From Nitrospinales bacterium (GTDB taxonomy: Bacteria > Nitrospinota_A > UBA7883 > JACRGQ01): 64,000 nt of DNA. The notes beneath the pieces are model-generated. The model ran no database searches. It was not told the origin of the DNA and worked only from the letters and a program-made list of their open reading frames with translations. Numbering within the stretch: the stretch's first letter is position 1; each line of letters opens with the position of its first letter. The position numbers and the translations under genes are program-made. This document shows positions 5,781 through 59,629 of this stretch, piece after piece. Location of the stretch: the NCBI GenBank assembly GCA_023248535.1, contig JAHFEJ010000002.1, positions 2,714 through 66,713 of the forward strand, in the 5' to 3' direction.

Positions 5781-7413
5781 TTTCCTTACTCCAGAGTTCC
5801 AGGTCTGTTAAAGGCCACCCTTTGGAATCCATCCACTGTTTGAACGCCCTTCGGTAGATCAGCTTCACCTTTACTGTACTACAACCTGATTTTTTGGGCT
5901 TGAATAAATATCGGGAAGAATCGCTTCCGCCCGCCGGTATGCGGTTGTCCGAAACTATTCTGGTCTGCCTCCAGTGGGGGGCTGGCGACCGGTAATTCGG
6001 ATTGACCTTGCCCGGATATTCCGCTGCGGCATCCCCCAGTATTTTTGCAAACCCCTTTCCCGGCAACCCGGCATAATCGCCGTTTATCTCGGATCCGATG
6101 CCGCCCCAATCCGGCACCACCGGGCCTCCGGCAAATTCCAGTTTTTTTCCGCCGCCGTCGTTGGCCGCCACCAGCAATATCAGGTTGCGCATCGGCACCC
6201 CCGTCGGGAAGTGGTGCCCGGCTTTTTCATTCGTTATCGTCACGTCGACCGTCAGGCCGTTTTTATTTTTTTCAGCGGCGACGTTAATTTTCAAAGCGCT
6301 GGCAATAAAGCGGGCATCGCGCGAACCGGGCATGTTGTGGGTGGATATGGTTTTTGGATCCCTGCTTACGCCGCCTTTCCCTGGAGGAACGATAAAGACT
6401 GATTTCATGCCGGGCGCCATGTGGCAATCCTGGCACTCCGTTCCTCGGGCGGGATAGGGGCTTTTAAGCCATTCATCGTACTCGGAGTAAACAGGCGTTC
6501 CCCAGAAACTGGCGCTGTGGCACGGGGCGCAAAACCGGCTTTTCGTATAGAGGGAGGAGTAGGTATCAGGCCCCGCCGTCACGTCGTCAAGAGGCCCATA
6601 GAACAGTTGTTCGCCGGGGGGAGGACGATTAAAACGCATCGATAACACCCCCGGATACCCGCCGCCATGAATATCGGTCCCTTTGATCTTGTGGCAGAAA
6701 TCGCATGGTATCCCTTCTCGCGCGGCGCCTTTTATGTTGTTAAGATCCGTATTCCAGGGATCGGCCATCGCCGCAACGGGTGCATGGCAGGTGGCGCAAT
6801 TCCCCGCCGAGCCGGGAAAATCGAGCCGGTATCCGGGATATATTCCATTATTGCCTTTGGCATCAGTCCCGTTGTACATATCCAGCAACAGCGGGTTTCG
6901 CGCGGACATGGAATGGGCGCTTGCCCGCCACTCTGGCACAGTTGTGTTTTCGTGGCAGTTTGAGCAGTTATTTTCAAACCTGCTTCTCTGTTTTTTGTTG
7001 CCGGTCATAAAGGAGAAGGCCCGGCCTATCCCGATGGAGATTTTTTCCATGAGGGTTGGCGGTTCGGGTGAAACCCACTGGTAATCCTTTGTATCGGCAA
7101 ACGGAATGGGGTGCAGATGGATCACCGCATTCCCGGAATTTTCGGCAGTTTCGGTTCCGGCAATGAGATACCCCTCTTTCCATGCGCTAACCGTTATGTT
7201 GCCGGCGGGCGTATTTTCCAGCGTAAACATACCTTTGGCATCGGTCACTGTTTGTATTCGAGCGGCCCGCATGCGAACTGCGGCACGCGGGGCCGGCACA
7301 CCGCCCTCGGTAAGAACGATCCCCGTTACCTGCCGCGCCAACGCAAAATCACCGGGGAAGCAAATAAAGGCAAACGAAAAAATAACAAGGCATTTCATGG
7401 CGGCGTTGATCAT
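5764..7413 (-). CDS. Pentaheme c-type cytochrome with an N-terminal carboxypeptidase-regulatory-like domain
   Basis: 549 aa. Signal peptide. Five CxxCH motifs (CSNCH, CATCH, CDFCH, CAPCH, CQDCH). Its stop overlaps the start of the BNR protein. Confidence 0.8.
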   Translation of the reverse strand: MINAAMKCLVIFSFAFICFPGDFALARQVTGIVLTEGGVPAPRAAVRMRAARIQTVTDAKGMFTLENTPAGNITVSAWKEGYLIAGTETAENSGNAVIHLHPIPFADTKDYQWVSPEPPTLMEKISIGIGRAFSFMTGNKKQRSRFENNCSNCHENTTVPEWRASAHSMSARNPLLLDMYNGTDAKGNNGIYPGYRLDFPGSAGNCATCHAPVAAMADPWNTDLNNIKGAAREGIPCDFCHKIKGTDIHGGGYPGVLSMRFNRPPPGEQLFYGPLDDVTAGPDTYSSLYTKSRFCAPCHSASFWGTPVYSEYDEWLKSPYPARGTECQDCHMAPGMKSVFIVPPGKGGVSRDPKTISTHNMPGSRDARFIASALKINVAAEKNKNGLTVDVTITNEKAGHHFPTGVPMRNLILLVAANDGGGKKLEFAGGPVVPDWGGIGSEINGDYAGLPGKGFAKILGDAAAEYPGKVNPNYRSPAPHWRQTRIVSDNRIPAGGSDSSRYLFKPKKSGCSTVKVKLIYRRAFKQWMDSKGWPLTDLELWSKEIALCE

Positions 7414-10925: not shown

Positions 10926-11333
10926 TTACTTCACGCCTTTGGCGATCAAATGCTCCACATAAAGCAGGTCCGTCTTGAGAATGTGTTTGTACAGCCAGTC
11001 TTTCAGGAAATCCATGACCGCCATTGACAAAACGGTTTTGCCGCTGGTGAAATTGTTCAGCACGTCGGTGGCCTGTTTCGCCAGATCGTCGTGTTCCTTC
11101 TTGTGCGCGTCGTAACCGGAAAAGGCGTACTTTTTCATGTAGTCCTCTTCAATGGCGAAATGCGAGGCGGTGTAATTCACCAGTTCGGCAAGCACCTTCC
11201 CCATGACCTCTTTGCTTTTTCCGTGCAACATCGAGTCATGCAGTTCGTTAACCATCCCGAACAGCTTTTTGTGTTGATCGTCGATGCTTTTAATTTTGAC
11301 GCTGTACTTCTCGTCCCAAGGAATAAACGCCAT
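10926..11333 (-). CDS. Bacteriohemerythrin (hemerythrin HHE cation-binding domain)
   Basis: 135 aa. His/Asp/Glu ligand pattern (HF..E, H..EH, H..D) typical of hemerythrins. Confidence 0.75.
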   Translation of the reverse strand: MAFIPWDEKYSVKIKSIDDQHKKLFGMVNELHDSMLHGKSKEVMGKVLAELVNYTASHFAIEEDYMKKYAFSGYDAHKKEHDDLAKQATDVLNNFTSGKTVLSMAVMDFLKDWLYKHILKTDLLYVEHLIAKGVK

Positions 11334-21712: not shown

Positions 21713-23725
<2,013 letters not shown>

Positions 23726-35590: not shown

Positions 35591-36139
35591 ATGACAGATA
35601 AACTCATCACGCGCTATCTGGACGAGCTTTACCGCTGGAATGAAAAGGTGAACCTCACCTCTGTCGCGCGGGAAAAGGCCCACGCGGTGCTCATCGAGCC
35701 GTCGTTCGCGATGGCGGAGTTCTTTCCGCCGGGGGATACGCTGGAGATTTTCGACATCGGCAGCGGCGGCGGACTTCCCGCCATCCCGCTCGCCGTGCGC
35801 CATCCGCGGCACCGTTTCACTCTGGTGGAATCGGACCGGAAGAAGGCGGTTTTTTTACAGCACGCCGCCGGTCTGCTGGGATTGAAAAACGTGCGGGTGC
35901 TGAACGAGCGGAGCGAAAAGGTTTCGCAAGACCCCGCTTGCCGCGGAACCGCCGATGTTGTAACCTCGCGCGCCGTGAAGAGGGAAGATGTTTTTGCCGC
36001 CGCCGACGGCCTGTTGAAACCATCGGGCCGCGTCATCATCCACCACACCCCCGACGCCCCGGAAGTGGCCTCCGGTTACCACCTTTACGGCAAAATCCCC
36101 TCCGCCGACTGCTTCACCCGCCATCTCACCGCCCCATAA
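35591..36139 (+). CDS. rsmG: 16S rRNA (guanine527-N7)-methyltransferase RsmG (GidB)
   Basis: 182 aa. SAM-binding DIGSGGGLP motif. Conserved mnmG-rsmG synteny. Confidence 0.88.
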   Translation: MTDKLITRYLDELYRWNEKVNLTSVAREKAHAVLIEPSFAMAEFFPPGDTLEIFDIGSGGGLPAIPLAVRHPRHRFTLVESDRKKAVFLQHAAGLLGLKNVRVLNERSEKVSQDPACRGTADVVTSRAVKREDVFAAADGLLKPSGRVIIHHTPDAPEVASGYHLYGKIPSADCFTRHLTAP

Positions 36140-36539
36140 ATGCCACTATCCGCTTTACCAATAACGGCGTTTTTTTAATCTGGCATTCCCAAATCACAAG
36201 CGTTTTCCAACCCTGTTTTTTCAGCGCTAGAAGGTTTTTTTGGTCACGTTCTTTGTTTCTTGATAACTTTGCCTTCCAATACTTGATATTCGATTTTGGC
36301 ATGTGTGCGATGCCACATTGATTACTTTCATGTGTGTGCCAAAAGCATCCATGGACGAAAATGGCTTTTTTTCCGCTTCTAAACACCAAGTCCGGCTTGC
36401 CGGGCAAATCGGAAGCATGAAGGCGGTAACGGTAACCAAGTTGATAAACGGTTTTTCTTACGGCGATTTCAGGCTTCATCCCCTTGCCCCGGATGCGCCG
36501 CATGTTCTCGCTTCGCGCGTCGGGGGTGAGCTTATCCAT
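36126..36539 (-). CDS. vsr: Very-short-patch repair endonuclease
   Basis: 137 aa. Vsr motifs (PDLVF, FVHGCFWH). 8-nt overlap with the HNH gene. Confidence 0.88.
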   Translation of the reverse strand: MDKLTPDARSENMRRIRGKGMKPEIAVRKTVYQLGYRYRLHASDLPGKPDLVFRSGKKAIFVHGCFWHTHESNQCGIAHMPKSNIKYWKAKLSRNKERDQKNLLALKKQGWKTLVIWECQIKKTPLLVKRIVAFMGR

Positions 36540-37125
36540 CCTTCAGTTGTTTTTTGGCATCCTTGGGAAACTTGCCGATAAGCCAATTCAATACTGAAAT
36601 CTGATCAGTGGCCGGTGCTCTGCGGATTTGCGCCAACAATTTGCTGGCCGAAGGACGCTCAAGCGTAATATTGGCCGCCCCTTCATTGCAGACGGAACAA
36701 ATGGCGCGCAGGTTGGATGGATCGTCATCGCCACCTAATGATTTATCTTTAACGTGGCCTATGTGCAACCGGGTCTTGCGGGTGGGGTCATAAGGATGGG
36801 GTTCTCCGGCTGCCGCCCCGCACATCTGGCAGGTATACCCGTTTCGATCCAGAACAAGGGCGCGGGTTTCTTTTGATATTTCGCGGGCAAAGGCGGGCAC
36901 CGGCTTGGGGTTCTCAAGCAGATAGTCCCCCGGTTTCAAATTGCTCCGGTCATTGTGGGTCAGTATTTGGTATCCCTCTTCCGTGCGCAGTTCCCGGACT
37001 CTCCTTGCCCACTCGCTGGTGTTGCCCGCGATTTTTCTTAATTCATCCGAAGACATGACTTTGCCTATATTTTTCAGAAAATGTGCCCGGAGTTTCGCCC
37101 TCGCGCCATTTGATTTCTTTTTCAT
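36532..37125 (-). CDS. HNH nuclease, putative restriction endonuclease of a Type II R-M system
   Basis: 197 aa. CxxC...HIGH...N...CxxC HNH core (CQMCG, HIGHVKDKS, CSVCN). Sandwiched between the m5C MTase and vsr. Confidence 0.65.
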   Translation of the reverse strand: MKKKSNGARAKLRAHFLKNIGKVMSSDELRKIAGNTSEWARRVRELRTEEGYQILTHNDRSNLKPGDYLLENPKPVPAFAREISKETRALVLDRNGYTCQMCGAAAGEPHPYDPTRKTRLHIGHVKDKSLGGDDDPSNLRAICSVCNEGAANITLERPSASKLLAQIRRAPATDQISVLNWLIGKFPKDAKKQLKDG

Positions 37126-37129
37126 AATC

Positions 37130-38083
37130 TTAGCTTGCCACCTGAACCAATTGCCGCCTGGTCAGGCACTTTACCAACTGTTGTGCAACTGCGTGAGCCA
37201 CCGGAGAGGGAAAAGCGTTTCCCACTTGACGGTAGGCGGGGGTTTTTTTTCCATGAAATTGCCAGTCATCCGGGAAACCTTGTATGCGTGCCACCATTCG
37301 CACCGTCAGCCGGGGCATGCCGATAAAATCCTTGGCCGGGGCTTCATCCACAATGCCCCGGCCATCGACCCCCAATGCGGCCCACGCTTTTCTTGCCCTT
37401 GTCGGCCCCAAATCCGGCCCGCCATGCTTAAGGGAACCGCCAACTATCGTTGGCGCGATCTCATTGGCTTGTTTGGCCCAGTTTTTTGCGCCCTTCCATC
37501 CATTGAAGGCCATAAGGTCATATAGCGTTTCGCCAACAGTGGGGGGATGGGCCGATAATCTGAAAGGCCACGAAAAATTTTCCCATAAGTCAGATTTAAG
37601 GGCCACAAAGATAACGCGGGGCCGCAACTGCGGCACCCCGAAATCACTGGCATTGAGCAAAGCCCAATCGGTTTTATAACCAAGTTTTTTTAGTTCTTTG
37701 GCGACGTACAGGCGGTAATCCTGAAAGACGGCGTCCAGTATTCCCCGGACATTTTCAATCATTACCGCGCGAGGCCTGATTTCATCAACCAGCCTGATGG
37801 CGGCTGGAAAAAGATTGCGTTCATCATCTTCGCCCAATTGCTTTCCCGCCTTTGAAAACGGAGGACAGGGCAACCCCCCGGCGAACAGATCAACCCCTTT
37901 GTACGGCTTGCCGTTAAACTCCTTGATATTTTCCTGCAAGACGTTCCACTGAGGGCGGTTAAGCGTTAGGGTGTTGCAAGCGTTTTTATCAAGTTCGACA
38001 AGAGCCTGATGATCGAAGCCGGCTTTTTCAAGCCCAATAGCTTGTCCCCCCGCCCCGGCGCATACCTCAACTGAAGTCAGCAT
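37130..38083 (-). CDS. DNA (cytosine-5)-methyltransferase
   Basis: 317 aa. Motif I (EVCAGAGG), motif IV (GLPCPPFS), motif VI (ENV) and motif X. Confidence 0.9.
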   Translation of the reverse strand: MLTSVEVCAGAGGQAIGLEKAGFDHQALVELDKNACNTLTLNRPQWNVLQENIKEFNGKPYKGVDLFAGGLPCPPFSKAGKQLGEDDERNLFPAAIRLVDEIRPRAVMIENVRGILDAVFQDYRLYVAKELKKLGYKTDWALLNASDFGVPQLRPRVIFVALKSDLWENFSWPFRLSAHPPTVGETLYDLMAFNGWKGAKNWAKQANEIAPTIVGGSLKHGGPDLGPTRARKAWAALGVDGRGIVDEAPAKDFIGMPRLTVRMVARIQGFPDDWQFHGKKTPAYRQVGNAFPSPVAHAVAQQLVKCLTRRQLVQVAS

Positions 38084-46032: not shown

Positions 46033-46106
46033 TGGCTGGCCACCAAGGATTCGAACCTCGATAGGCAGATCCAGAATCTGCTGTCCTACCATTAGACGAG
46101 TGGCCA
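46033..46106 (-). tRNA. tRNA-Gln (anticodon CUG)
   Basis: Manual fold: U1-A72 acceptor (TGGCCAC/GTGGCCA), D-arm GTCT/GGAC, anticodon stem GCAGA/TCTGC with loop TTCTGGA, T-arm CGAGG-TTCGAAT-CCTTG, discriminator G, encoded CCA. Confidence 0.85.
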
Positions 46107-49461: not shown

Positions 49462-49982
49462 AAACGCTGATCACCGGCGGGGCGCGCAGCGGCAAAAGCG
49501 CCCACGCCCTTTTGCTGGCGGAGCGATCGCCCGGCGCGAAAATATTCATCGCCACCGCCGAGGCGCACGACGCGGAGATGCGTGCCCGCATCGTGAAACA
49601 CAAGGCCGAGCGCGGCCCCGGCTGGATAACCGTGGAAGAGCCGCTGAACGTGGCGGAAGCGGTGACGGCGCACGGCGCGGCAGGAAATATTATTGTGTTA
49701 GACTGTTTGACGCTTTGGGCCAGCAACCTGCTGGAACAGGCTGATGACGCCGCATTCGCCCGCAATGCGGATGAGCTGGCCGCCGCGGCGGCCGGCGTCG
49801 CGGCGGCGGTGATCGTGGTGACGAACGAGGTGGGGCTGGGCATCGTGCCGGGCGACCCGCTGTCGCGCGCCTACCGCGACCGATTGGGACTGGTTAACGC
49901 CCGGCTGGCGGCAGTGTGCGGCCGGGTAATATTGATGGTGGCGGGACTGCCGCTCATGATTAAAGGGGAAATGAAACCATGA
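49458..49982 (+). CDS. cobU: Adenosylcobinamide kinase / adenosylcobinamide-phosphate guanylyltransferase
   Basis: 174 aa. P-loop GGARSGKS. Confidence 0.88.
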   Translation: MKTLITGGARSGKSAHALLLAERSPGAKIFIATAEAHDAEMRARIVKHKAERGPGWITVEEPLNVAEAVTAHGAAGNIIVLDCLTLWASNLLEQADDAAFARNADELAAAAAGVAAAVIVVTNEVGLGIVPGDPLSRAYRDRLGLVNARLAAVCGRVILMVAGLPLMIKGEMKP

Positions 49983-51031
49983 AACGGATAGAGCAATACA
50001 TCGCCGCCATCGAGCCGGTGAACACCGCGCGGGATGCTGAAATTCAGACGCACCTCGACAATCTCACCAAGCCGCTCGGCTCGCTGGGGCGCTTGGAGGA
50101 TCTCGCCGCCCGCTACATCAGGGCCACGGATACTTTCCCCCCTCGGCTGAAAAAAAAGGCTATCTACATCATGGCGGCCGACCACGGCGTCTGCGCCGAA
50201 GGGGTGAGCGCGTTCCCGGCGGAAGTGACGCCGCAGATGGTGCTGAACTTCCTGCGCGGCGGCGCCGCCATCAACGTGCTGGCGCGCCACACCGGCTGCG
50301 AAACGGTGGTGGTGGACATGGGGGTCAATTACGATTTTGAAAAAACGCCGGGGCTGATCAACCTGAAGGTCGCCAAAGGATCAAAAAACATCGCCAAAGA
50401 AGCGGCGATGACCGAAAAGGAACTGGAACAGGCCATCTTCGCCGGTATCGGCCTTGCCGAAGAAGCGGCGAAGAACGGCGTTGATATCATCGGCACGGGG
50501 GACATGGGGATCGGCAACACCACCCCCTCCACCGCGCTGTATGCCGCCATGCTGGGGTTGGACCCGGAGGCCATCACCGGTCCCGGCACCGGGCTGGATG
50601 CCGCCGGGGTCGCGCGCAAGGTTGAAGTCCTCAAGCGCATCCTCGCGCTGCACGCGCCGTTCGCCTCGCCGCTTGACGCGCTGCGCAAAGTGGGCGGGCT
50701 GGAGATCGCCGGGCTTACCGGCCTTATCCTCGGCGCGGCGAAACACAAGATACCGGTGGTGGTGGACGGTTTCATCTCGATGGCGGCCGCCATCGTCGCC
50801 ATCCGCAGCGCCCCGCCCATCCATCAGCGCGTATTCTTCGCGCATCTTTCCGCCGAACGCGGGCACCGCCGCATCTGCGAAGAGGTGGGGGTGAAACCGA
50901 TCCTCGATCTCGATATGCGGCTGGGAGAGGGAACCGGCGCCGCGCTTGCCATAGGCATCGTGGAAGCCTCCGTGAAGATATACAACGAAATGGCCACCTT
51001 CGGCAGCGCTGGCGTTTCCACCGCGCTATGA
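49979..51031 (+). CDS. cobT: Nicotinate-nucleotide--dimethylbenzimidazole phosphoribosyltransferase
   Basis: 350 aa. CobT motifs (GDMGIGNTT, GLDAAG). Confidence 0.9.
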   Translation: MKRIEQYIAAIEPVNTARDAEIQTHLDNLTKPLGSLGRLEDLAARYIRATDTFPPRLKKKAIYIMAADHGVCAEGVSAFPAEVTPQMVLNFLRGGAAINVLARHTGCETVVVDMGVNYDFEKTPGLINLKVAKGSKNIAKEAAMTEKELEQAIFAGIGLAEEAAKNGVDIIGTGDMGIGNTTPSTALYAAMLGLDPEAITGPGTGLDAAGVARKVEVLKRILALHAPFASPLDALRKVGGLEIAGLTGLILGAAKHKIPVVVDGFISMAAAIVAIRSAPPIHQRVFFAHLSAERGHRRICEEVGVKPILDLDMRLGEGTGAALAIGIVEASVKIYNEMATFGSAGVSTAL

Positions 51032-51053
51032 GCGGCGGCGCGCGTTTCCGCCG

Positions 51054-51782
51054 ATGCTGAAACCGCTGCACCTGGCCTTTACGTTCCTTACCCGCCTGCC
51101 GCTGCCGCAGGTAAAGGAATACGGCGCGGCCGATTTCGGCGCGTCGTTCGCTTTCTTTCCGCTGGTGGGGGCCGCCATCGGTGGCATGGCGGCGGCGGCC
51201 GCATACGGCCTCATGAAGGCGGGGGCCGATCCGCGCATCGCCGCTTTCACCGCGTTGCTGTTGCTGACACTGCTCACCGGCGGGTTGCATCTCGACGGTT
51301 TGGCCGACTCGGCGGATGGCCTGCTGAGCGGCAAAGGGCCGCAGCGCGCGCTGGAGATCATGAAGGAGCCGTTCACCGGCCCGTTCGGCTACACAGCGAT
51401 TTTCCTCGTACTCATCGGCAAGTTCACGGCGCTCTGGCTGATCTGCGAACAGGGGCGCTTTGAAACCATCGCCGTGGCGCTCGCCTTTTCGCGCTGGAGC
51501 ATGACCGTGGCCGCCTTCAACGCCCGCTACCCGCGCGCCACCGGCACCGGCGCGGCATTTGTTGGAACCTTTTCGGCGGCGACGGTGCTTGCCGCCACGG
51601 CAATTCTTTTAGCGGCGGGGTTCTGTACCGCGCCGGCGAAACTGGCGCTCTTCGCGGGGGCGGCGGCGGCCACCGCGCTGGCGCTGCGGAAGTTTGCCGA
51701 GCGGAAAATCGGCGGCGTGACCGGCGACATCCTTGGCGCGGTGAACGAAACCGCCGAGACGCTCCTCCTGCTGATAGCCTGA
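51054..51782 (+). CDS. cobS: Adenosylcobinamide-GDP ribazoletransferase (cobalamin synthase)
   Basis: 242 aa polytopic membrane protein. GGLHLDGLADSADG motif. Confidence 0.88.
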   Translation: MLKPLHLAFTFLTRLPLPQVKEYGAADFGASFAFFPLVGAAIGGMAAAAAYGLMKAGADPRIAAFTALLLLTLLTGGLHLDGLADSADGLLSGKGPQRALEIMKEPFTGPFGYTAIFLVLIGKFTALWLICEQGRFETIAVALAFSRWSMTVAAFNARYPRATGTGAAFVGTFSAATVLAATAILLAAGFCTAPAKLALFAGAAAATALALRKFAERKIGGVTGDILGAVNETAETLLLLIA

Positions 51783-51946
51783 CGCTTTGCGCTGTTCCGG
51801 GAAATTATTTTGTAATTTCCCGTGCGGTTGATAGTAGAATCCATCCCTTACGTATTTTTTACGTTAAAGTTTGCCACGGAATATTGTTTAGCCGAGCGTG
51901 TTGCGCGGCAGTTCCGCGGAAATGATTTACACCTTGGAGGATTCGC

Positions 51947-52141
51947 ATGAAAAAGTTCCTGACTATCGCTTTCGTGGCCGTTGCTTTCACCTGCTTCACC
52001 GCCCCGGCGTTCGCTGAAGAAGTCAAAGCCGAAGTGAAGGCCGATGCCAAAGCCGACAAAAAAGCGGCCAAGAAAGCCGGCAAAGCGGAAGCGAAGGCTG
52101 AAGTGAAGGCCGAAGAAAAGAAAGCCGAAGAAAAGAAATAA
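51947..52141 (+). CDS. Small secreted Lys/Ala/Glu-rich repeat protein (64 aa)
   Basis: Signal peptide. AEVKA/KADKK repeats. GGAGG RBS. Followed by a strong terminator. Confidence 0.55.
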   Translation: MKKFLTIAFVAVAFTCFTAPAFAEEVKAEVKADAKADKKAAKKAGKAEAKAEVKAEEKKAEEKK

Positions 52142-52165
52142 CCCTCTTTTCGCTGTCTGATTTTA

Positions 52166-52203
52166 CGCCCCGGACCGGCCAACCGCCGCCGGGGCTTTTT
52201 TTT
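52166..52203 (+). terminator. Rho-independent terminator
   Basis: GCCCCGG...CCGGGGC stem followed by T9. Confidence 0.8.
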
Positions 52204-52327
52204 GATAGCGCTGTTTTCAACCGGTGGTTGTTACCACCGGAGACAGATTTTTTCGCCCATTCGTACAAAGTGCAAATATGTTTGGCGGGTGGCCGGACGG
52301 CGCGGTAGACTGCTCCCCATAAACCCG

Positions 52328-53299
52328 ATGAAAAAAATATTCCGGCTTGCGATAGTTGCGGCGCTGATCGCCCTTGCGCCGCCAATGCCGGACGAGGCCC
52401 ACGCCACACAGATATTCGCCGACCAGACCGGTAAAAACTGCGATTACTGCCACATCGGCCGTCCCGACAACCTTGAGTTCACCACCGACGGCAACCTCTT
52501 CGTCCAGAACTATTACCGGCTTCCCGGCGTGGGCGATGGCGCATCGAAGACCGGCCTCGCCGCCGCGCTTGAACGTAAAATCCGCCATCTGCTTTTGGCG
52601 GTTCATGCCGCCGCGGCGGTGGCGCTGGCGGGGACGGCCATCTTTTTCGGCTTTGTGCCGCGGCCGTTGGCGCATGAAGACCTTCCCCAGGGCGAACGCA
52701 AATTCATTTGGACATCGATGGGCCTCGCCATCCTCTGTGGCGGGCTGCTGGTGCCTTTCGTCTACCAGCCGGAGGCCGATTTCTGGCATTCCACCTACGG
52801 CACTTTTCTGGGGCTGAAGATTGTCCTCACCAACCTGCTGGTGTTGCTGATGACGGCCCGGCTGATTGTGGCGCGCCAAACGGCGGGGATCCGCAAAGAG
52901 GCCGGGCTGTTTCTTGCATTGCCCCATTTTTCCCTATCCCAGGCGTTTTCACCCGCCGATCTCAGGCATTTCAACGGCCGTAAGGGACGCCGCGCGCTGA
53001 TCGCCTATCAAGGGAAGGTGTACGATGTCACCGATGCGCGCCACTGGAACGACGGGATCCACATGAACAAGCACGCCGCCGGCGCCGATCTGACCGGCGC
53101 CATCGCCGCCGCGCCGCATGGCGAGGCGGTGCTTCGCGCAGCGAAAGAGGTGGGAACGTACAACCCATCGCTAACCACGCCGGGTTGCGGCGAGTTGCGG
53201 CGGCTCGATGCCCATCTGCGGCGGTTCAATACTTTCTCCCGCGCTTCCGCGGCGGTGGCCGCGGCGCTGGCGGTCACGCTGGCCTTCTGGCATCAATAA
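52328..53299 (+). CDS. Membrane protein fusing an N-terminal mono-heme c-type cytochrome (CDYCH), a multi-TM core and a C-terminal cytochrome b5-like heme/steroid-binding domain
   Basis: Signal peptide. Single CxxCH. At least four TM helices. C-terminal HFNGRKG...AYQGKVYDVTD...W..G.H...H motif of the cyt b5 family. Confidence 0.6.
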   Translation: MKKIFRLAIVAALIALAPPMPDEAHATQIFADQTGKNCDYCHIGRPDNLEFTTDGNLFVQNYYRLPGVGDGASKTGLAAALERKIRHLLLAVHAAAAVALAGTAIFFGFVPRPLAHEDLPQGERKFIWTSMGLAILCGGLLVPFVYQPEADFWHSTYGTFLGLKIVLTNLLVLLMTARLIVARQTAGIRKEAGLFLALPHFSLSQAFSPADLRHFNGRKGRRALIAYQGKVYDVTDARHWNDGIHMNKHAAGADLTGAIAAAPHGEAVLRAAKEVGTYNPSLTTPGCGELRRLDAHLRRFNTFSRASAAVAAALAVTLAFWHQ

Positions 53300-53362
53300 C
53301 CCCATCCGCCGCCGGGGCGGTTCCTGTGTTACAATCAGCAAAATTGCCATAAAAATGCAGTA

Positions 53363-53707
53363 TTGGGGGAATTAATGGAAACGTATTACAATCCCGCGGA
53401 CCTTGGAAAATTTGGCGACATGGGGAAGGATGCCCCGGAGCTGTGGAATGCTTTCATGCAGTGGTACGGCAAGGTTTTTGCCGAGGGGGAACTCACCGCG
53501 CGTGAGAAATCGCTCATCGCCTTGGCGGTCGCCCACGCCGTGCAGTGCCCCTATTGTATCGACGCCTACACCAAGGACTGCCTTGAAAAAGGCTCCAACA
53601 CCGGCCAGATGACCGAGGCAATCCACGTGGCGGCCGCCATACGGGGGGGGGCCTCGATGGTGCACGGAGTGCAAATGCGCAACGCTGCGGAAAAACTATC
53701 GTTTTAA
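53363..53707 (+). CDS. AhpD-like (carboxymuconolactone decarboxylase family) CxxC redox protein, partner of the ArsS-type radical SAM enzyme
   Basis: 114 aa. CPYC motif within an AhpD core. 3 nt upstream of the radical SAM gene. Confidence 0.65.
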   Translation: MGELMETYYNPADLGKFGDMGKDAPELWNAFMQWYGKVFAEGELTAREKSLIALAVAHAVQCPYCIDAYTKDCLEKGSNTGQMTEAIHVAAAIRGGASMVHGVQMRNAAEKLSF

Positions 53708-53709
53708 CG

Positions 53710-54678
53710 ATGCCCGCCACCATTACTCCATTCGACGACGCGCTTAAATCGTGCGGGCTTTACCCGTTGCGCGCCGACGGCATCGCCACCCTGCAGATGA
53801 ATTTGGGCAAAAAATGCAACCAGGCATGCAACCACTGCCACGTCGAGGCGGGGCCGAACCGCACCGAAATGATGGGGGAAGCCGTGATGGACCGCTGCAT
53901 CGCCCTGCTGGAAAGCGAGCGGATACCGGTGCTGGATATCACCGGTGGCGCGCCGGAACTGCACCCGTGCTACCGGGCGTTTGTCGAACGCGCCCGCGCC
54001 ACCGGCGCAACCGTCATGACGCGGTGCAACCTCACCATATTGCGCGAACCGGGGATGGACGACCTTCCCGCGTTTTGGAAGGCGCATAACGTAGCCATCG
54101 TCGTATCGCTCCCCTACTTCCGCCGCGAAGAGACCGATGCGGTGCGCGGCAAGGGGGTTTTTGAAAAATCGGTGGAAGCCCTCAAGCGGCTGAACGAAAT
54201 CGGTTATGGCGTCGAGGGGAGCGGCCTTTCGCTGAACCTCGTTTACAACCCGGCCGGGGCGTTCCTCCCCGCGCCGCAGGAGGCGATAGAGGGGCAATTC
54301 CGCGCGGAATTGAAGAAAAACCACGGCATTTCCTTTAATCACCTGTTCGCCTTGACCAACATGCCAATCGCGCGTTTTAAGGACCACCTCATCCGCAAAA
54401 ACACGCACGAGGGTTATCTGCAACGCCTCGCGGGGGCGTTCAACCCCGGCGCGGCTGAAAACGTGATGTGCCGGTCGATGATCTCGGTTGGATGGGACGG
54501 ATTTTTATTCGACTGCGATTTCAACCAGATGCTCAACCTGCGCGTCAATCACGGCGCACCCTTCCACATCAACGATTGGAACCGGCACGCCCTCGCGGGA
54601 CGGCAGATCGTCACCGGCCCGCACTGCTACGGCTGCACCGCCGGGCAAGGCTCCAGTTGCGGCGGAAAGACTTCTTGA
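53710..54678 (+). CDS. Radical SAM/Cys-rich domain protein of the ArsS (arsenosugar biosynthesis) family
   Basis: CNQACNHC (CxxxCxxC) near the N-terminus. C-terminal Cys cluster CYGCTAGQGSSCGG. Confidence 0.65.
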   Translation: MPATITPFDDALKSCGLYPLRADGIATLQMNLGKKCNQACNHCHVEAGPNRTEMMGEAVMDRCIALLESERIPVLDITGGAPELHPCYRAFVERARATGATVMTRCNLTILREPGMDDLPAFWKAHNVAIVVSLPYFRREETDAVRGKGVFEKSVEALKRLNEIGYGVEGSGLSLNLVYNPAGAFLPAPQEAIEGQFRAELKKNHGISFNHLFALTNMPIARFKDHLIRKNTHEGYLQRLAGAFNPGAAENVMCRSMISVGWDGFLFDCDFNQMLNLRVNHGAPFHINDWNRHALAGRQIVTGPHCYGCTAGQGSSCGGKTS

Positions 54679-54683
54679 AGCGG

Positions 54684-55178
54684 GTGCTCCCCTTTTTTCT
54701 GGCCGCCCTCATGACCGCCGGATGCAGTTACCATCTTGCGGGGCAAGGGAGCAGCCTGCCTGAAAACATCAAAAGCATTGCCATCCCCGTTTTTGAAAAC
54801 GACGTGCAGCAGCCGAACCTCGATATCGCCGTTACGCGCGCCGTGACGGAAACATTCATCAGGGACGGACGACTGGCGGTGGTTGACGGCGGGGCCGACA
54901 GCCTGCTGCTGGGCACCATTAAAAGCTACGCGCTGGAACCGGTGGCTTTTGACACCCTCAACCGGGTTACCCAGTACCGCGTTAAATTGATGGTGAAGGT
55001 CAAATTCACCGATAACACCGGCAAAGGGCTGTCGCTGGAGCGCGACCTGCGGGTGCAGTGGGATTATAATGTTGGCACAGCCATTCCGGTGGCCGAAACC
55101 GCGCGGAACCAGGCGGTTTTGGAAGCGGCCGGCTATCTGGGCGACCGGATCGCCGGCATGATCCTCGACGGTTTTTAA
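54684..55178 (+). CDS. lptE: LptE-like LPS-assembly lipoprotein
   Basis: Lipobox LMTAGC. About 165 aa, the size and pattern of LptE/RlpB. Start codon uncertain: TTG 54675 or GTG 54684, overlapping the upstream stop. Confidence 0.5.
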   Translation: MLPFFLAALMTAGCSYHLAGQGSSLPENIKSIAIPVFENDVQQPNLDIAVTRAVTETFIRDGRLAVVDGGADSLLLGTIKSYALEPVAFDTLNRVTQYRVKLMVKVKFTDNTGKGLSLERDLRVQWDYNVGTAIPVAETARNQAVLEAAGYLGDRIAGMILDGF

Positions 55179-55339
55179 CGGCAAGGAGCGGCGCCATTTC
55201 CCACACTGTCTACGGCAACATATCGGGGCTGCCCCATGCGGCCCTCAAAAGCCTCGAACGCGTTTACCGGCGTAAAATTCCCGCCGGGCAGCTCATTACC
55301 GATGAACTCCTGCTGTACATCGCCAAGCTTTCCTCGGAG

Positions 55340-56833
55340 TTGGGGCGGCAGATAGCCCTGCTGATCGACCGCAAAGGGAAAATCACGCACGTCATTGCGG
55401 GCAACGACCATCAGATCGTCATCCCCAATTTGGGACAGCGCCGCGTGGCCGGCAAACGGCTGGCCGGATACCGTTGTGTGCATACCCACCTGAAAGGGGA
55501 GCCGGTCACGCGGGACGACCTGAACGACCTTCTGCTGCTGCGGCTCGACGCGATGGCCGCCATCGACGTGCGCCCGGACGGCACGGCGGGAAAACTGCAC
55601 CTCGCCCACATCGAAGCGGGCGAAGAGGACCGCTATGCCTCGCACGGCGGGCTTACCCACCCACGGGCCGAAGAGCTGTATCAGGGGCTGATAGAGCGGG
55701 TGGAGCGCGAACTGGAAAAGACCGTCATCGTAAAAAAGGTGGAGACGGAACAGAGCGCGCTGCTGATACACGTCTCGGGCAAGCCGAAGCTGCAAATGGA
55801 CATATCGCTGGACGAGCTGGCCGAATTGGCCCGCAGCGCGGGGATCGCCGTGGCGGGACGGGTGACGCAGCGTCGCGACGTGCCCGATCCGAAATTCCTG
55901 ATGGGGCACGGCAAAATGCAGGAGTTCATGATCAAGGCGCTCTCGCTGGGGGTGGACATGGTGATATTCGATACCGAGCTGACCCCCGCGCAGATAAAGG
56001 CGATTTCCGATTTCACCGACCTGGAAGTGCTCGACCGCACCCAGCTTATCCTCGGCATCTTCGAGAAGCGCGCCACCAGCCGCGACGGCAAGGTGCGCGT
56101 GCAACTGGCGCAGATGAAATACCTGCTCCCCCGGCTGGGCGCGAAAGAATCGGCCCTCTCGCGCATTCGCGGCGGCATCGGCCTGCGCGGTCCCGGCGAA
56201 ACCACCGCCGAAACGCAGCGCCGCCACCTGCAGGGGCGCATCGCCCAGTTTGAAAAGGAACTGGAGAACCTGAAGAACCGCCGCGAACAGAAGCGGAAGA
56301 AACGCGGCCGCTCCGAGGTGAAAACCGTTTCGATACTCGGCTATACCAACGCGGGCAAATCGACGCTCCTCAACCGCCTCACCGGCAGCGACCTGCTGGT
56401 GAAAGACCTTCTCTTCTCCACGCTCGACCCCGCGACCCGGCGGCTCTGGCTGCCGAACGGCAAAGAGGTGGTCATCAGCGATACGGTGGGGCTGATCCGC
56501 AACATGCCCGAATCGCTGCGCGGCGTGTTCCGCGCCACGCTGGAGGAGCTGGCCGAATCCGACCTGCTCATCAACCTGGCAGACATCTCGAACCCCGAAC
56601 TGGATGCACACATGAAAGTCACCGAAGAGATCATCGAGGATATCGGCCTGGCGGAAATTCCCGTCATCACGGTTTTCAACAAAATAGAACTGGCCGACGC
56701 CGAACAGGCCCAAAACATCTGCCGCCGCCACGGCGCGCTCGGCCTCAGCGCCGTCACCGGCGAGGGGCTGGACGAGCTGAAACAGAAGATCAGCGGTGCG
56801 CTCTTTACATTCCCGGGATCAAAGGAGCCATAA
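55340..56833 (+). CDS. hflX: GTPase HflX
   Basis: HflX N-terminal and GTPase domains (GYTNAGKSTLLN, DTVGLI, NKID). Apparent TTG start. Unusual ~100-aa N-terminal extension. Confidence 0.8.
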   Translation: MGRQIALLIDRKGKITHVIAGNDHQIVIPNLGQRRVAGKRLAGYRCVHTHLKGEPVTRDDLNDLLLLRLDAMAAIDVRPDGTAGKLHLAHIEAGEEDRYASHGGLTHPRAEELYQGLIERVERELEKTVIVKKVETEQSALLIHVSGKPKLQMDISLDELAELARSAGIAVAGRVTQRRDVPDPKFLMGHGKMQEFMIKALSLGVDMVIFDTELTPAQIKAISDFTDLEVLDRTQLILGIFEKRATSRDGKVRVQLAQMKYLLPRLGAKESALSRIRGGIGLRGPGETTAETQRRHLQGRIAQFEKELENLKNRREQKRKKRGRSEVKTVSILGYTNAGKSTLLNRLTGSDLLVKDLLFSTLDPATRRLWLPNGKEVVISDTVGLIRNMPESLRGVFRATLEELAESDLLINLADISNPELDAHMKVTEEIIEDIGLAEIPVITVFNKIELADAEQAQNICRRHGALGLSAVTGEGLDELKQKISGALFTFPGSKEP

Positions 56834-58249: not shown

Positions 58250-59059
58250 TTAAAGCCCTACACTAAATAAGTGAGCCATTCTTTTCCCTTTTGCAGAGAA
58301 TACATAGCCGTTCCCATTATCATAAATAATGTTGGCAAGTTGATATTTTTGGATTTCGTCTGCGCTTAAATTCCTACCTCCGTCCTGCAAGACATCATCG
58401 ATTACCTTATTAAACCCATTGAAGAAGTCTACCGTTTTTAACCGGTGGTATTCGGAATCGTTAGCATCAGTCCGACCGGAATCAGGCACCTTGTCTACCT
58501 TCTCCTCATTCCTTTTTTTGCTCTGCTGGCCTACTTCATCTGCCTTTAGCGCCAAGTCGGAAGTGGCCTGAGGATTGGCGGCCATCTCTAAGCTTTTTAT
58601 TTTGTTATTAAGCACTTCAATTGTGGCGTCTTTTTCTTTGATCATGCTTGCCACTTCATGTTTTACCCGTTCCATTTGGACGCGAATTTCATCAGCAGCT
58701 TCTTCTGTTAATAGCTGCTTTTTCTCCTTCTCCTGCTTTATTTTCAACAGTTCTTCCGCTCTATCTTTTGCAAAGGAATATGCCCATTTGGACGGAAAGG
58801 GATATACGAAAATAAAAAACATTGCGGAAATTAAGGGCCCAAAGAACAAATGGATAAACCCTTCCCATGATAATGTCATATAAGAAAATGATTCTATGTT
58901 GGTTATTCGGGCCGAAGCAGTTTCATCACCAATGAACAAAAGCGCGAGAACCTTCCAGTTAATAACTCCCCACGAAAGGATAAAGGCCCCCGACAAAGGG
59001 CTTACAACCCTATCGTAAAGAATAGCCTTGAACGACTTGCTTAATTCTTCAAGCATGGC
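58250..59059 (-). CDS. Membrane-anchored coiled-coil protein of unknown function (low-GC island)
   Basis: Two N-terminal TM helices, a ~100-aa K/E-rich coiled coil and a ~70-aa C-terminal domain. GC about 45%. Confidence 0.5.
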   Translation of the reverse strand, partial: AMLEELSKSFKAILYDRVVSPLSGAFILSWGVINWKVLALLFIGDETASARITNIESFSYMTLSWEGFIHLFFGPLISAMFFIFVYPFPSKWAYSFAKDRAEELLKIKQEKEKKQLLTEEAADEIRVQMERVKHEVASMIKEKDATIEVLNNKIKSLEMAANPQATSDLALKADEVGQQSKKRNEEKVDKVPDSGRTDANDSEYHRLKTVDFFNGFNKVIDDVLQDGGRNLSADEIQKYQLANIIYDNGNGYVFSAKGKRMAHLFSVGL

Positions 59060-59072
59060 TTGACCGAGATGT

Positions 59073-59321
59073 TCATATATCGGCGAATTCTTCGACGGGG
59101 ACGTTAATCTCCTTTGACGCCTTTTTTTTGGAATGGCTGATCTCCTCGAAGGCATGTTCGATTTTTTTCAGGGTTGCGGCTTCATAGTACCGCTCGCCGC
59201 AGAAATCGCATTCTTCGCACGGCACCTCGTTGACGACGAAAAAGCGGCTGCCGCTTTTATAGATGTACTGCGCCTTTTTTGCCGTGAAATTTTTGTTTCC
59301 GCAAAAATTACATGTTTTCAT
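59073..59321 (-). CDS. YgiT-type zinc-finger protein (MqsA-like antitoxin zinc ribbon, no HTH)
   Basis: CxxCG...(28 aa)...CxxCDFCGE pattern (CNFCGN ... CEECDFCGERYY). Confidence 0.6.
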   Translation of the reverse strand: MKTCNFCGNKNFTAKKAQYIYKSGSRFFVVNEVPCEECDFCGERYYEAATLKKIEHAFEEISHSKKKASKEINVPVEEFADI

Positions 59322-59323
59322 GC

Positions 59324-59629
59324 CTACCCTCTTTCCAGGGGATTAATAAACTTTGGTGGCTTCGGGATATACACTGTTATCATCACCGGCCATTCGCCGC
59401 GGCGGCCACAAACAACGTGTACCGGTTTCCCCTGTTTCGTGTAACCGGCTACAAGACAGCTTTCACCGCGGCCCGTATCTTCATAATACTCCAAAAGAAT
59501 GCCGGAAAGCAGGGCATCCTCGATTTCCAGAAATGTTAGCGAATCGTTATGCCGTTCTTCATCGGCATGTTTGGAAACATAATATTGCCCTGCCCTTACC
59601 TGCTCCTTTATCCAATCAAGGGATAGCAT
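59324..59629 (-). CDS. DUF4258-like small protein (toxin-like partner of YgiT/DUF2283 antitoxins)
   Basis: 101 aa. ESCLVAGYTKQGKPVHVVCG...ITVY pattern of DUF4258. ATG overlaps the TAA of the upstream gltS-like gene (TAATG). Confidence 0.55.
   Translation of the reverse strand: MLSLDWIKEQVRAGQYYVSKHADEERHNDSLTFLEIEDALLSGILLEYYEDTGRGESCLVAGYTKQGKPVHVVCGRRGEWPVMITVYIPKPPKFINPLERG

Follow-up and report, generated by a model that had tools for sequence, protein, structure and literature searches.

The stretch of DNA analysed here (hereafter the window) comprises 64,000 nucleotides of contig JAHFEJ010000002.1 from a Nitrospinales bacterium. At positions 52328..53299 of its forward strand lies an intact gene whose product is, to judge from its sequence, likely to be a redox protein of the inner membrane that combines haem c, CopD-like and cytochrome b5M modules. 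The open reading frame (ORF) extends from an ATG at 52328 to a TAA at 53297-53299 and encodes 323 amino acids (aa). A longer, TTG-started ORF (52202-53299, 365 aa) was ruled out by the N-termini of the orthologues and by the signal peptide, which fits the ATG at 52328. Within the 323-aa protein, the signal peptide is followed by a 50-aa segment containing a CxxCH motif, three transmembrane (TM) helices, a cytochrome b5 domain and a fourth TM helix.

Kyte-Doolittle hydropathy revealed a signal-type segment at residues 3-22 and four TM segments at approximately residues 88-110, 126-146, 158-181 and 302-320. The predicted Sec-type signal peptide (residues 1-26; 52328..52405) consists of MKKIFR, a hydrophobic core and an AHA stretch followed by TQ, with the junction after residue 26. 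The close family shows no variation at A24 or A26, and A26 is at least 90% conserved in an alignment of 33 sequences. The putative periplasmic mini-cytochrome c segment covers residues 27-76 (52406..52555), a reading supported by the invariance of its CxxCH and by a profile match, with the candidate haem c attachment motif C38-D-Y-C41-H42 (CDYCH, residues 38-42) at nucleotides 52439-52453. TM1 (residues 88-110; 52589..52657), placed by hydropathy and alignment, is predicted to run from outside to inside and contains His93 (52604-52606) and Gly102, both invariant; position 108 is a Gly in the target and a His in most members of the wider family. A K/R-rich, putatively cytoplasmic loop precedes TM2 (residues 126-146; 52703..52765), which would return from inside to outside according to hydropathy, K+R counts and the AlphaFold2 (AF2) model. 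Hydropathy, alignment and AF2 place TM3 (residues 158-181; 52799..52870), predicted to run from outside to inside and bearing the invariant Lys164 (52817-52819). The cytochrome b5M domain (residues 205-278; 52940..53161) occupies the predicted cytoplasmic loop between TM3 and TM4, with candidate axial ligands His245 (53060-62) and His264 (53117-19) and a likewise invariant His249. TM4 (residues 302-320; 53231..53287; hydropathy and AF2) would again pass from inside to outside, leaving the C-terminus periplasmic. All of these features are on the forward strand. Run on the 33-sequence alignment, AF2 returned a model with four long helices (pLDDT 87.4, pTM 0.80), in which the TM3 helix continues to about residue 196 and the TM4 helix begins at about residue 288, both as cytoplasmic stalks; the 11 close sequences alone gave a pLDDT of 52, which is not usable. 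The 122 family sequences examined, down to approximately 22% identity, all share C38, C41, H42, H93 and K164, and all 118 of these that carry the b5 domain share H245, H249 and H264, which exceeds what chance would give.

We infer that the single CxxCH of the exported N-terminal segment carries a covalently bound haem c. The motif lies in an exported segment, as expected of a c-type cytochrome, and is preceded by a signal-type segment with AxA. The 50 residues match none of the cytochrome c families in Pfam. Searched as a profile against the PDB, they matched the haem-1 site of the 11-haem cytochrome OmhA (6qvm_A residues 22-41, LATEQYAKDTGKNCSYCH) with an E-value of 5.5e-6, and nearly all of the remaining matches are c-type haem sites. 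Indeed, the consensus around the CxxCH, ATEEYAxxTGKxCxxCH, agrees with the sequence at haem 1 in the crystal structure of OmhA (6QVM; PMC9250108). Elsewhere in the window, an exported 549-aa protein is encoded at 5764-7413 on the reverse strand, in which a CarboxypepD_reg-like N-terminal domain is followed by five CxxCH motifs, an arrangement unusual for a multihaem cytochrome. The presence of this cytochrome indicates that the organism matures c-type cytochromes.

A cytochrome b5-like domain had been proposed at the C-terminus by an earlier note on this DNA. The domain itself is real, scoring 27.9 bits against the gathering threshold of 23.7 for Pfam PF00173 (Cytochrome b5-like haem/steroid-binding domain) over residues 209-269, and the motif quoted for it, HFNGRKGRRALIAYQGKVYDVTDARHW, is found at residues 214-240 (HFNGRKG...AYQGKVYDVTD at 214-236). 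It is not C-terminal, however: the b5 domain sits in the TM3-TM4 loop, because relatives that lack it (P0033, P0039, P0083 and P0162; 215-226 aa) keep all four helices, and in one of these the CopD profile match runs uninterrupted over the junction. The closest proteins of solved structure, 6nzx_A (E 3.4e-14) and 6vz6_A (E 5.9e-14), align without gaps to residues 205-276/278, and the fold is that of cytochrome b5; PGRMC1 appeared in the PDB search with an E-value of 1e-3 only. In the structural study of cytochrome b5M (cytb5M), H42 and H61 are the axial haem ligands and H46 makes a further haem contact (10.1101/2021.11.30.470528). These residues of 6VZ6/6NZX correspond to H245, H264 and H249 of the target, allowing for an offset of one residue between SEQRES and the numbering of that study. 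The domain thus has the two axial His of the prokaryotic cytb5M, as opposed to Tyr ligation. Because H245 and H264 match known axial ligands and are identical in every b5-bearing member, we assign the domain to the bis-His electron-carrier type, cytb5M, rather than to the Tyr-ligated, eukaryotic MAPR type, and haem b binding is predicted. Whereas 6NZX (Hadesarchaea) and 6VZ6 (Methanococcoides burtonii) are small domains of approximately 78 aa, the b5 domain of the target is a loop insertion in a polytopic protein with a haem c site, and fusions to CopD or cytochrome c are not mentioned in the cytb5M papers. Other undescribed b5M architectures were seen among P0016-P0025, P0027 and P0035. These include proteins in which the b5M domain is repeated three to six times in tandem, some of them with a lipobox (LTGC), and minimal TM-b5M-TM hairpin proteins of approximately 170 aa (P0027, P0035) that resemble the cassette inserted in the target. 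In the plasmid collection, b5 domains occur only as stand-alone proteins, in Firmicutes.

By profile comparison, the TM part of the protein is a four-helix module homologous to the C-terminal four-TM repeat of CopD/YebZ. The family profile matches E. coli YebZ with 39.9 bits over YebZ residues 138-259, with weaker alignment to the last YebZ helix and to its N-terminal repeat, and positions 142-270 of the NCBIfam CopD model align to TM1-TM3. Distant relatives pass the Pfam CopD threshold (PF05425, 32.1 bits), with 36.9 bits for P0026, 34.0 for P0041, 40.8 for P0068 and 42.9 for P0117. Against the NCBIfam CopD equivalog NF033808, the best relative reached 43.6 bits, below the 195 required and over model positions 145-260 only. 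In register with YebZ, His93 corresponds to His154, Gly102 to the Gly nine residues past that His, and Lys164 to the Lys of 'LLLLKAIL'; the three residues are therefore hallmarks of the CopD superfamily and not inventions of the target family. CopD, YebZ and PcoD thus share with the target the same N-out topology, the hallmark TM His, the Gly nine residues on and the TM Lys, all in register. In contrast to their two repeats and 8 TM helices, the target has one repeat and 4 TM helices, no CopC/YobA partner, and predicted haem domains on both faces.

HemJ (PgdH2), the membrane haem-b protoporphyrinogen dehydrogenase, is likewise a small four-TM protein, and the TM1 motif H-[LI]-x4-W-F-G is common to both; unlike the target, it has no cytochrome c or b5 domains. 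HemJ is a membrane-bound, homodimeric b-type haemoprotein (PMC13564367). The family profile scores a non-significant 0.5 bits against HemJ, in an in-register alignment that places His93 on HemJ His16. The latter residue is reportedly the HemJ haem ligand. The query, which we take to be Synechocystis HemJ, scored 171.8 bits on Pfam UPF0093/HemJ, confirming it as a HemJ, and 37.9 bits on Pfam CopD, above the gathering threshold. This second match links the haem-b enzyme HemJ with the 'copper' CopD module, and no paper joining the two was found in the literature searched. The family falls outside HemJ itself, with no match to HemJ/UPF0093 (PF03653) or to the TIGR HemJ model in the Pfam and NCBIfam scans.

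Two further groups of membrane cytochromes are comparable in function rather than descent. Like the predicted target family, proteins of the NapC/NirT/NrfH/cM552 type and NorC carry c-type haem at the membrane, and their genes adjoin, or are fused with, those of HAO-like octahaem cytochromes or NorB. These proteins are not homologous to the target, which in place of four or five haem c groups and one TM anchor is predicted to have one haem c, a four-helix CopD-type anchor and a cytoplasmic b5. With its one CxxCH and four TM helices, the target does not qualify as NapC/NirT/NrfH, and no significant Pfam or NCBIfam match to that module was obtained. The ferric-reductase domain/NOX/STEAP proteins and cytochrome b561 are alike in idea, passing cytoplasmic input via a membrane haem module to an extracytoplasmic acceptor. 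However, their two haems b are held by two pairs of His distributed over two helices, whereas the only conserved TM histidines here are H93 and, in relatives, H108, both on the single helix TM1. Neither a sequence match nor a fold match above noise was found to these di-haem TM cytochromes, and the target does not fit their definition.

The haem c segment is firmly predicted to be periplasmic and the b5 domain cytoplasmic, in the order out, in, out, in (b5), out. The N-terminal segment is placed outside on account of the signal peptide and CxxCH. Over the 33 sequences, loop 1-2 contains on average 3.5 K+R and loop 2-3 contains 0.8, compared with 4.5 for the stretch of 18 residues that follows TM3, which gives this order by the positive-inside rule. 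Five relatives (P0037, P0043, P0050, P0055 and P0068) have past TM4 an additional domain that carries as many as eight CxxCH motifs and matches Pfam Multi-haem_cyto and an NCBIfam hydrazine-dehydrogenase (HAO-family) model; one of the five fusions is labelled 'hydroxylamine dehydrogenase' in IMG. Since the HAO-like fused domain can only be periplasmic and a single TM helix lies between it and b5, the b5 domain should be cytoplasmic. CopC-CopD fusions also imply an N-out orientation of the CopD repeat. The b5M domain alone is no guide to the side of the membrane, as some b5M proteins, including P0019 and P0024, are lipoproteins and would hence be extracytoplasmic. The signal peptide with CDYCH and the four or more TM helices listed in the earlier note are thus present, the latter being four in number by hydropathy and specifically a module of CopD/HemJ type, and its proposal of haems on both sides of the membrane, rather than on the same side, agrees with the predicted topology.

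The family is uncharacterised, yet widespread and environmentally common. A word-indexed search found 11 close homologues (59-100% identity), and a repeat with the divergent alignment added one further sequence. An exhaustive profile search gave 1546 matches, mostly b5M domains, with the complete architecture in at least 33 of the best 150 cluster representatives, and a TM1 motif scan of the JGI metagenomes produced at least 596 confirmed relatives. Searching genome collections with the close alignment returned three loci, and the close subfamily was found in metagenome-assembled genomes labelled 'Nitrospinales bacterium' and 'bacterium'. Two subfamilies can be distinguished. The type of the target, which includes the b5-less forms, has Gly/Ala at position 108, and the large type has His108, located 15 residues past His93 and facing roughly the same side of the helix. 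The family is without an NCBIfam model, and no paper describing it was found in the literature searched (CopD with cytochrome b5, multihaem, NOR or HAO). The description of the fusion as rarely described therefore applies to the literature and curated databases, and not to metagenomes, where the architecture is abundant. It is the combination of modules that is new, as each module is known.

Genes near the relatives point to a redox context. Within 8 kb, a NorB/qNOR-type haem-copper-superfamily gene, an HAO-like octahaem gene or a NapH/CcoG-like Fer4_5 gene occurs at 16 of 74 metagenomic loci, all of the large subfamily, for which H108 was a search criterion and not a result. Two loci (L059/L064, 5559-9886) have the order norC-like, norB, target homologue, NapH- or CcoG-like ferredoxin; another (L060, 2189-8912) has cytochrome c', three HAO-like octahaem genes, a cupin, an M24 peptidase and the homologue, and in L010 (1407-5154) a qNOR and a cupin precede it. 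A further relative comes after a Crp/Fnr regulator and a cupin. Together with the HAO-like fusions, these neighbours tie the family to periplasmic nitrogen-oxide redox enzymes. As a separate observation, a small cupin lies beside the gene in three unrelated loci (L008, L010 and L060).

We tentatively favour a reading in which the protein is an inner-membrane redox protein, with haem c outside, a CopD/HemJ-type bundle in the membrane and b5 inside, and exchanges electrons as follows. The periplasmic haem c would trade electrons with periplasmic partners, which in relatives may be HAO-like octahaem cytochromes (fused or adjacent) or NO reductase. An outer-leaflet pocket formed by His93 and Lys164 could hold a membrane-level redox centre. 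This would be either the c haem, docked there and ligated distally by His93, or, as in HemJ, an additional haem b that may be bound across a dimer interface. The b5 haem would then serve as the cytoplasmic point of entry or exit. In most relatives the second TM1 histidine, His108, 15 residues further in, could bind a cofactor in the inner leaflet and so complete a wire. In the Gly108 subfamily of the target, a link between the two sides via a partner, a dimer interface or the quinone pool would be more likely than an unbroken chain within the molecule. A redox membrane protein with haems on both faces is likely, and electrons are probably moved at or across the membrane by this protein; the single-chain electron conduit of the earlier note is, at this stage, a hypothesis.

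A number of observations weigh against the favoured reading. The subfamily of the target has one conserved TM histidine only and lacks the inner-leaflet His, so that a continuous haem wire is not evident from the sequence. His93 lies approximately 16 residues from the inner end of TM1, and in the AF2 model the b5 domain is carried on helical extensions of TM3 and TM4 of approximately 14 residues each. The distance between the c and b5 haems is therefore probably several tens of ångströms, several times the physiological tunnelling limit of approximately 14 Å between centres; His108 of the large subfamily could fill part of this gap. The target itself scores 15.8 bits on Pfam CopD, below the 32.1 that its distant relatives exceed, which makes it a homologous CopD module and not a family member by the curated rule. 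His93 and Lys164 also occur in CopD proteins without known haem binding. Conserved redox neighbours are missing from the target gene, and neighbour clustering over the 74 metagenomic loci yielded no universal partner gene.

Two bolder versions of the proposal can be distinguished. That the protein is a self-sufficient single-chain transmembrane wire appears unlikely. Of similarly low probability is a new class of conduit on the CopD/HemJ fold, in which haem c, one or two haems b at the TM1 histidines (H93 and, for most members, H108), probably within the interface of a homodimer, and the b5 haem would be joined. If true, a cytoplasmic redox pool would be wired directly to periplasmic HAO-like or NO-reducing enzymes, and the CopD-type His/Lys pocket would generally be a haem or redox site.

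Among the alternatives to the favoured electron-exchange reading, a copper or metal reductase-importer survives best, if still as an unlikely one. Here the CopD module would move copper, and the haem domains would pass cytoplasmic electrons out to reduce Cu(II) to Cu(I) prior to uptake, a function that can be likened to the eukaryotic Fre/STEAP reductases and the bacterial cupric reductase CcoG. The CopD/YebZ homology is real and the hallmark His and Lys are conserved. Moreover, a NapH/CcoG-like Fer4_5/Fer4_18 membrane ferredoxin adjoins the gene in several loci, with haem-copper-superfamily genes near, and cytb5M genes lie beside ferric-reductase-like TM proteins in CPR (candidate phyla radiation) bacteria (10.1101/2021.11.17.468889). 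The CcoG-like neighbour and the CopD homology thus keep a role in copper reduction open. However, no genes of CopC/YobA, CopA, CopZ or CsoR type lie beside the target or recur in the 74 loci, Met/His-rich copper motifs are absent, and the module is only half a CopD, with 4 of 8 TM helices, that misses the NCBIfam CopD equivalog widely (at most 43.6 against 195 bits). The strongest fusion link is to HAO-like nitrogen-cycle cytochromes, not to copper genes.

It is rather improbable that the two haem domains act independently, with no transfer across the membrane, the protein being an anchored periplasmic cytochrome c (NorC-like) to which a cytoplasmic b5 haem/redox/NO sensor or docking site has been added. 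The b5-less members (P0033, P0039, P0083 and P0162) demonstrate that the cytochrome c and four-TM core can stand alone, and the minimal TM-b5M-TM hairpins (P0027, P0035) exist separately. The missing inner-leaflet His of the subfamily and the NO-related neighbours in relatives (cytochrome c', NorB, a Crp/Fnr regulator) would also suit such an arrangement. Conversely, no output or signalling domain is present, and the invariant axial His pair suggests a six-coordinate, carrier-type site that is ill suited to ligand sensing. The b5 ligand histidines are conserved in 118 of 118 b5-bearing members, against four b5-less variants only.

A HemJ-like dehydrogenase of tetrapyrroles, or of another lipophilic substrate, with built-in acceptor haems is very unlikely. 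The CopD-type module is common to HemJ, a haem-b dimer, the TM1 motif is in register with HemJ His16, and in its subfamily the gene always follows cobU/T/S, including at the 59%-identical locus. Against this, the family profile lacks a significant match to HemJ, and neither PF03653 nor the TIGR HemJ model is matched; cobUTS act on the nucleotide loop and not on porphyrinogen oxidation, a terminator separates the cob genes from the target, and the cob synteny is limited to close relatives. Weakest of all, a non-haem role for the CxxCH (a thiol/disulfide or metal site or a chance motif, leaving a mono-haem b5 protein), which could appeal to the fact that haem attachment is not demonstrable from sequence and to the lack of a Pfam cytochrome c family covering the segment, is highly improbable given a Cys-x-x-Cys-His invariant in 122 of 122 sequences, His included, its position behind a signal peptide, flanks that match the OmhA haem-1 site in a search that otherwise returned almost only c-type haem sites, and relatives fused to multihaem c domains.

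Under the favoured reading of a redox protein with haem c outside and b5 inside, this would be among the few bacterial proteins with an outer-face haem c and an inner-face haem b5 in one polypeptide, for which the HAO-like fusions provide a natural link to nitrogen-oxide metabolism. The family would further offer a handle on the CopD four-helix repeat, whose invariant His/Lys pair is without established chemistry, as well as on the prokaryotic cytb5M domain and its physiological partners. Should haem be bound by the bundle, as it is by HemJ, it may become necessary to view CopD-type proteins as redox proteins and not as simple copper channels.

At the target locus itself, the gene is preceded by cobT/cobS and then by a small secreted Lys/Ala-rich ORF, and is followed by AhpD-like (TIGR04169), ArsS (TIGR04167), LptE and HflX genes. 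Four related loci share this order, and at the 59%-identical locus the cob genes alone are retained; the arrangement hence looks like inherited synteny. Across the related loci L001-L005, compared with 49979-56833, identity is 69-79% for the target, 83-94% for CobT, CobS, AhpD-like, ArsS and HflX, and 75-83% for LptE. The target is thus the fastest-evolving gene of its neighbourhood, its cofactor residues nonetheless being invariant. The small ORF (51947-52141, forward strand) encodes 64 aa, with a signal peptide and a Lys/Ala/Glu-rich low-complexity tail (EVKAEVKADAKADKKAAKKAGKAEAKAEVKAEEKKAEEKK); Pfam and NCBIfam gave no match to it, and an ORF of 66 aa occupies the same position in related loci.

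A terminator scan identified a terminator-like hairpin and T-run (CCGGCCAACCGCCGCCGG followed by GGCTTTTTTT) at 52175..52200 on the forward strand. As this hairpin would end the upstream small ORF, the target appears to open a new transcription unit; the scan found no terminator after the target. In an upstream alignment of the target (52142-52327) with L001, L003, L004 and L005, the blocks AAATATGTTTG and GCGCGGTAAACTG are conserved, down to 59% protein identity, and the conserved block lies 20-45 nt upstream of the ATG. These blocks may be a promoter or operator. From their conservation, a possible promoter can be proposed at 52282..52311 on the forward strand, with TTGGCG (52282-87), an 18-nt spacer and TAGACT (52306-11), which would give a leader of approximately 15 nt without a clear Shine-Dalgarno sequence; a consensus promoter scan gave no promoter at threshold upstream of the target. 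An 8-bp inverted repeat further upstream (approximately 52097-52116) is not conserved in the orthologues and was rejected.

A functional link to the cob genes was set aside because of the intervening terminator. Directly downstream, at 53375-54678 on the forward strand, lies an arsenosugar-type pair composed of an AhpD-like 'peroxidase-like' protein (TIGR04169, 196 bits) and the radical-SAM protein ArsS (TIGR04167, 434 bits), with no arsM seen near it. A functional link to this pair was likewise set aside, as the 59%-identical orthologue is without these genes; the potential of a b5 would not suit radical-SAM reduction.

Elsewhere in the window, a restriction-modification-like island at 36126-38083 on the reverse strand encodes a Vsr mismatch endonuclease, an HNH endonuclease and a C5 cytosine methylase. 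Its GC content at third codon positions (GC3) is 0.53-0.57, compared with approximately 0.7-0.8 in most of the window, and it was therefore probably acquired horizontally. Two ORFs at 58250-59444 have a GC3 of 0.45-0.48 and may be a foreign insert; the 301-aa ORF, the only one of the two scanned, has no Pfam match. A stand-alone hemerythrin (10926-11333, reverse strand), a membrane H+-pyrophosphatase (21713-23725, forward strand) and a tRNA gene (46036-46106, reverse strand) look ordinary.

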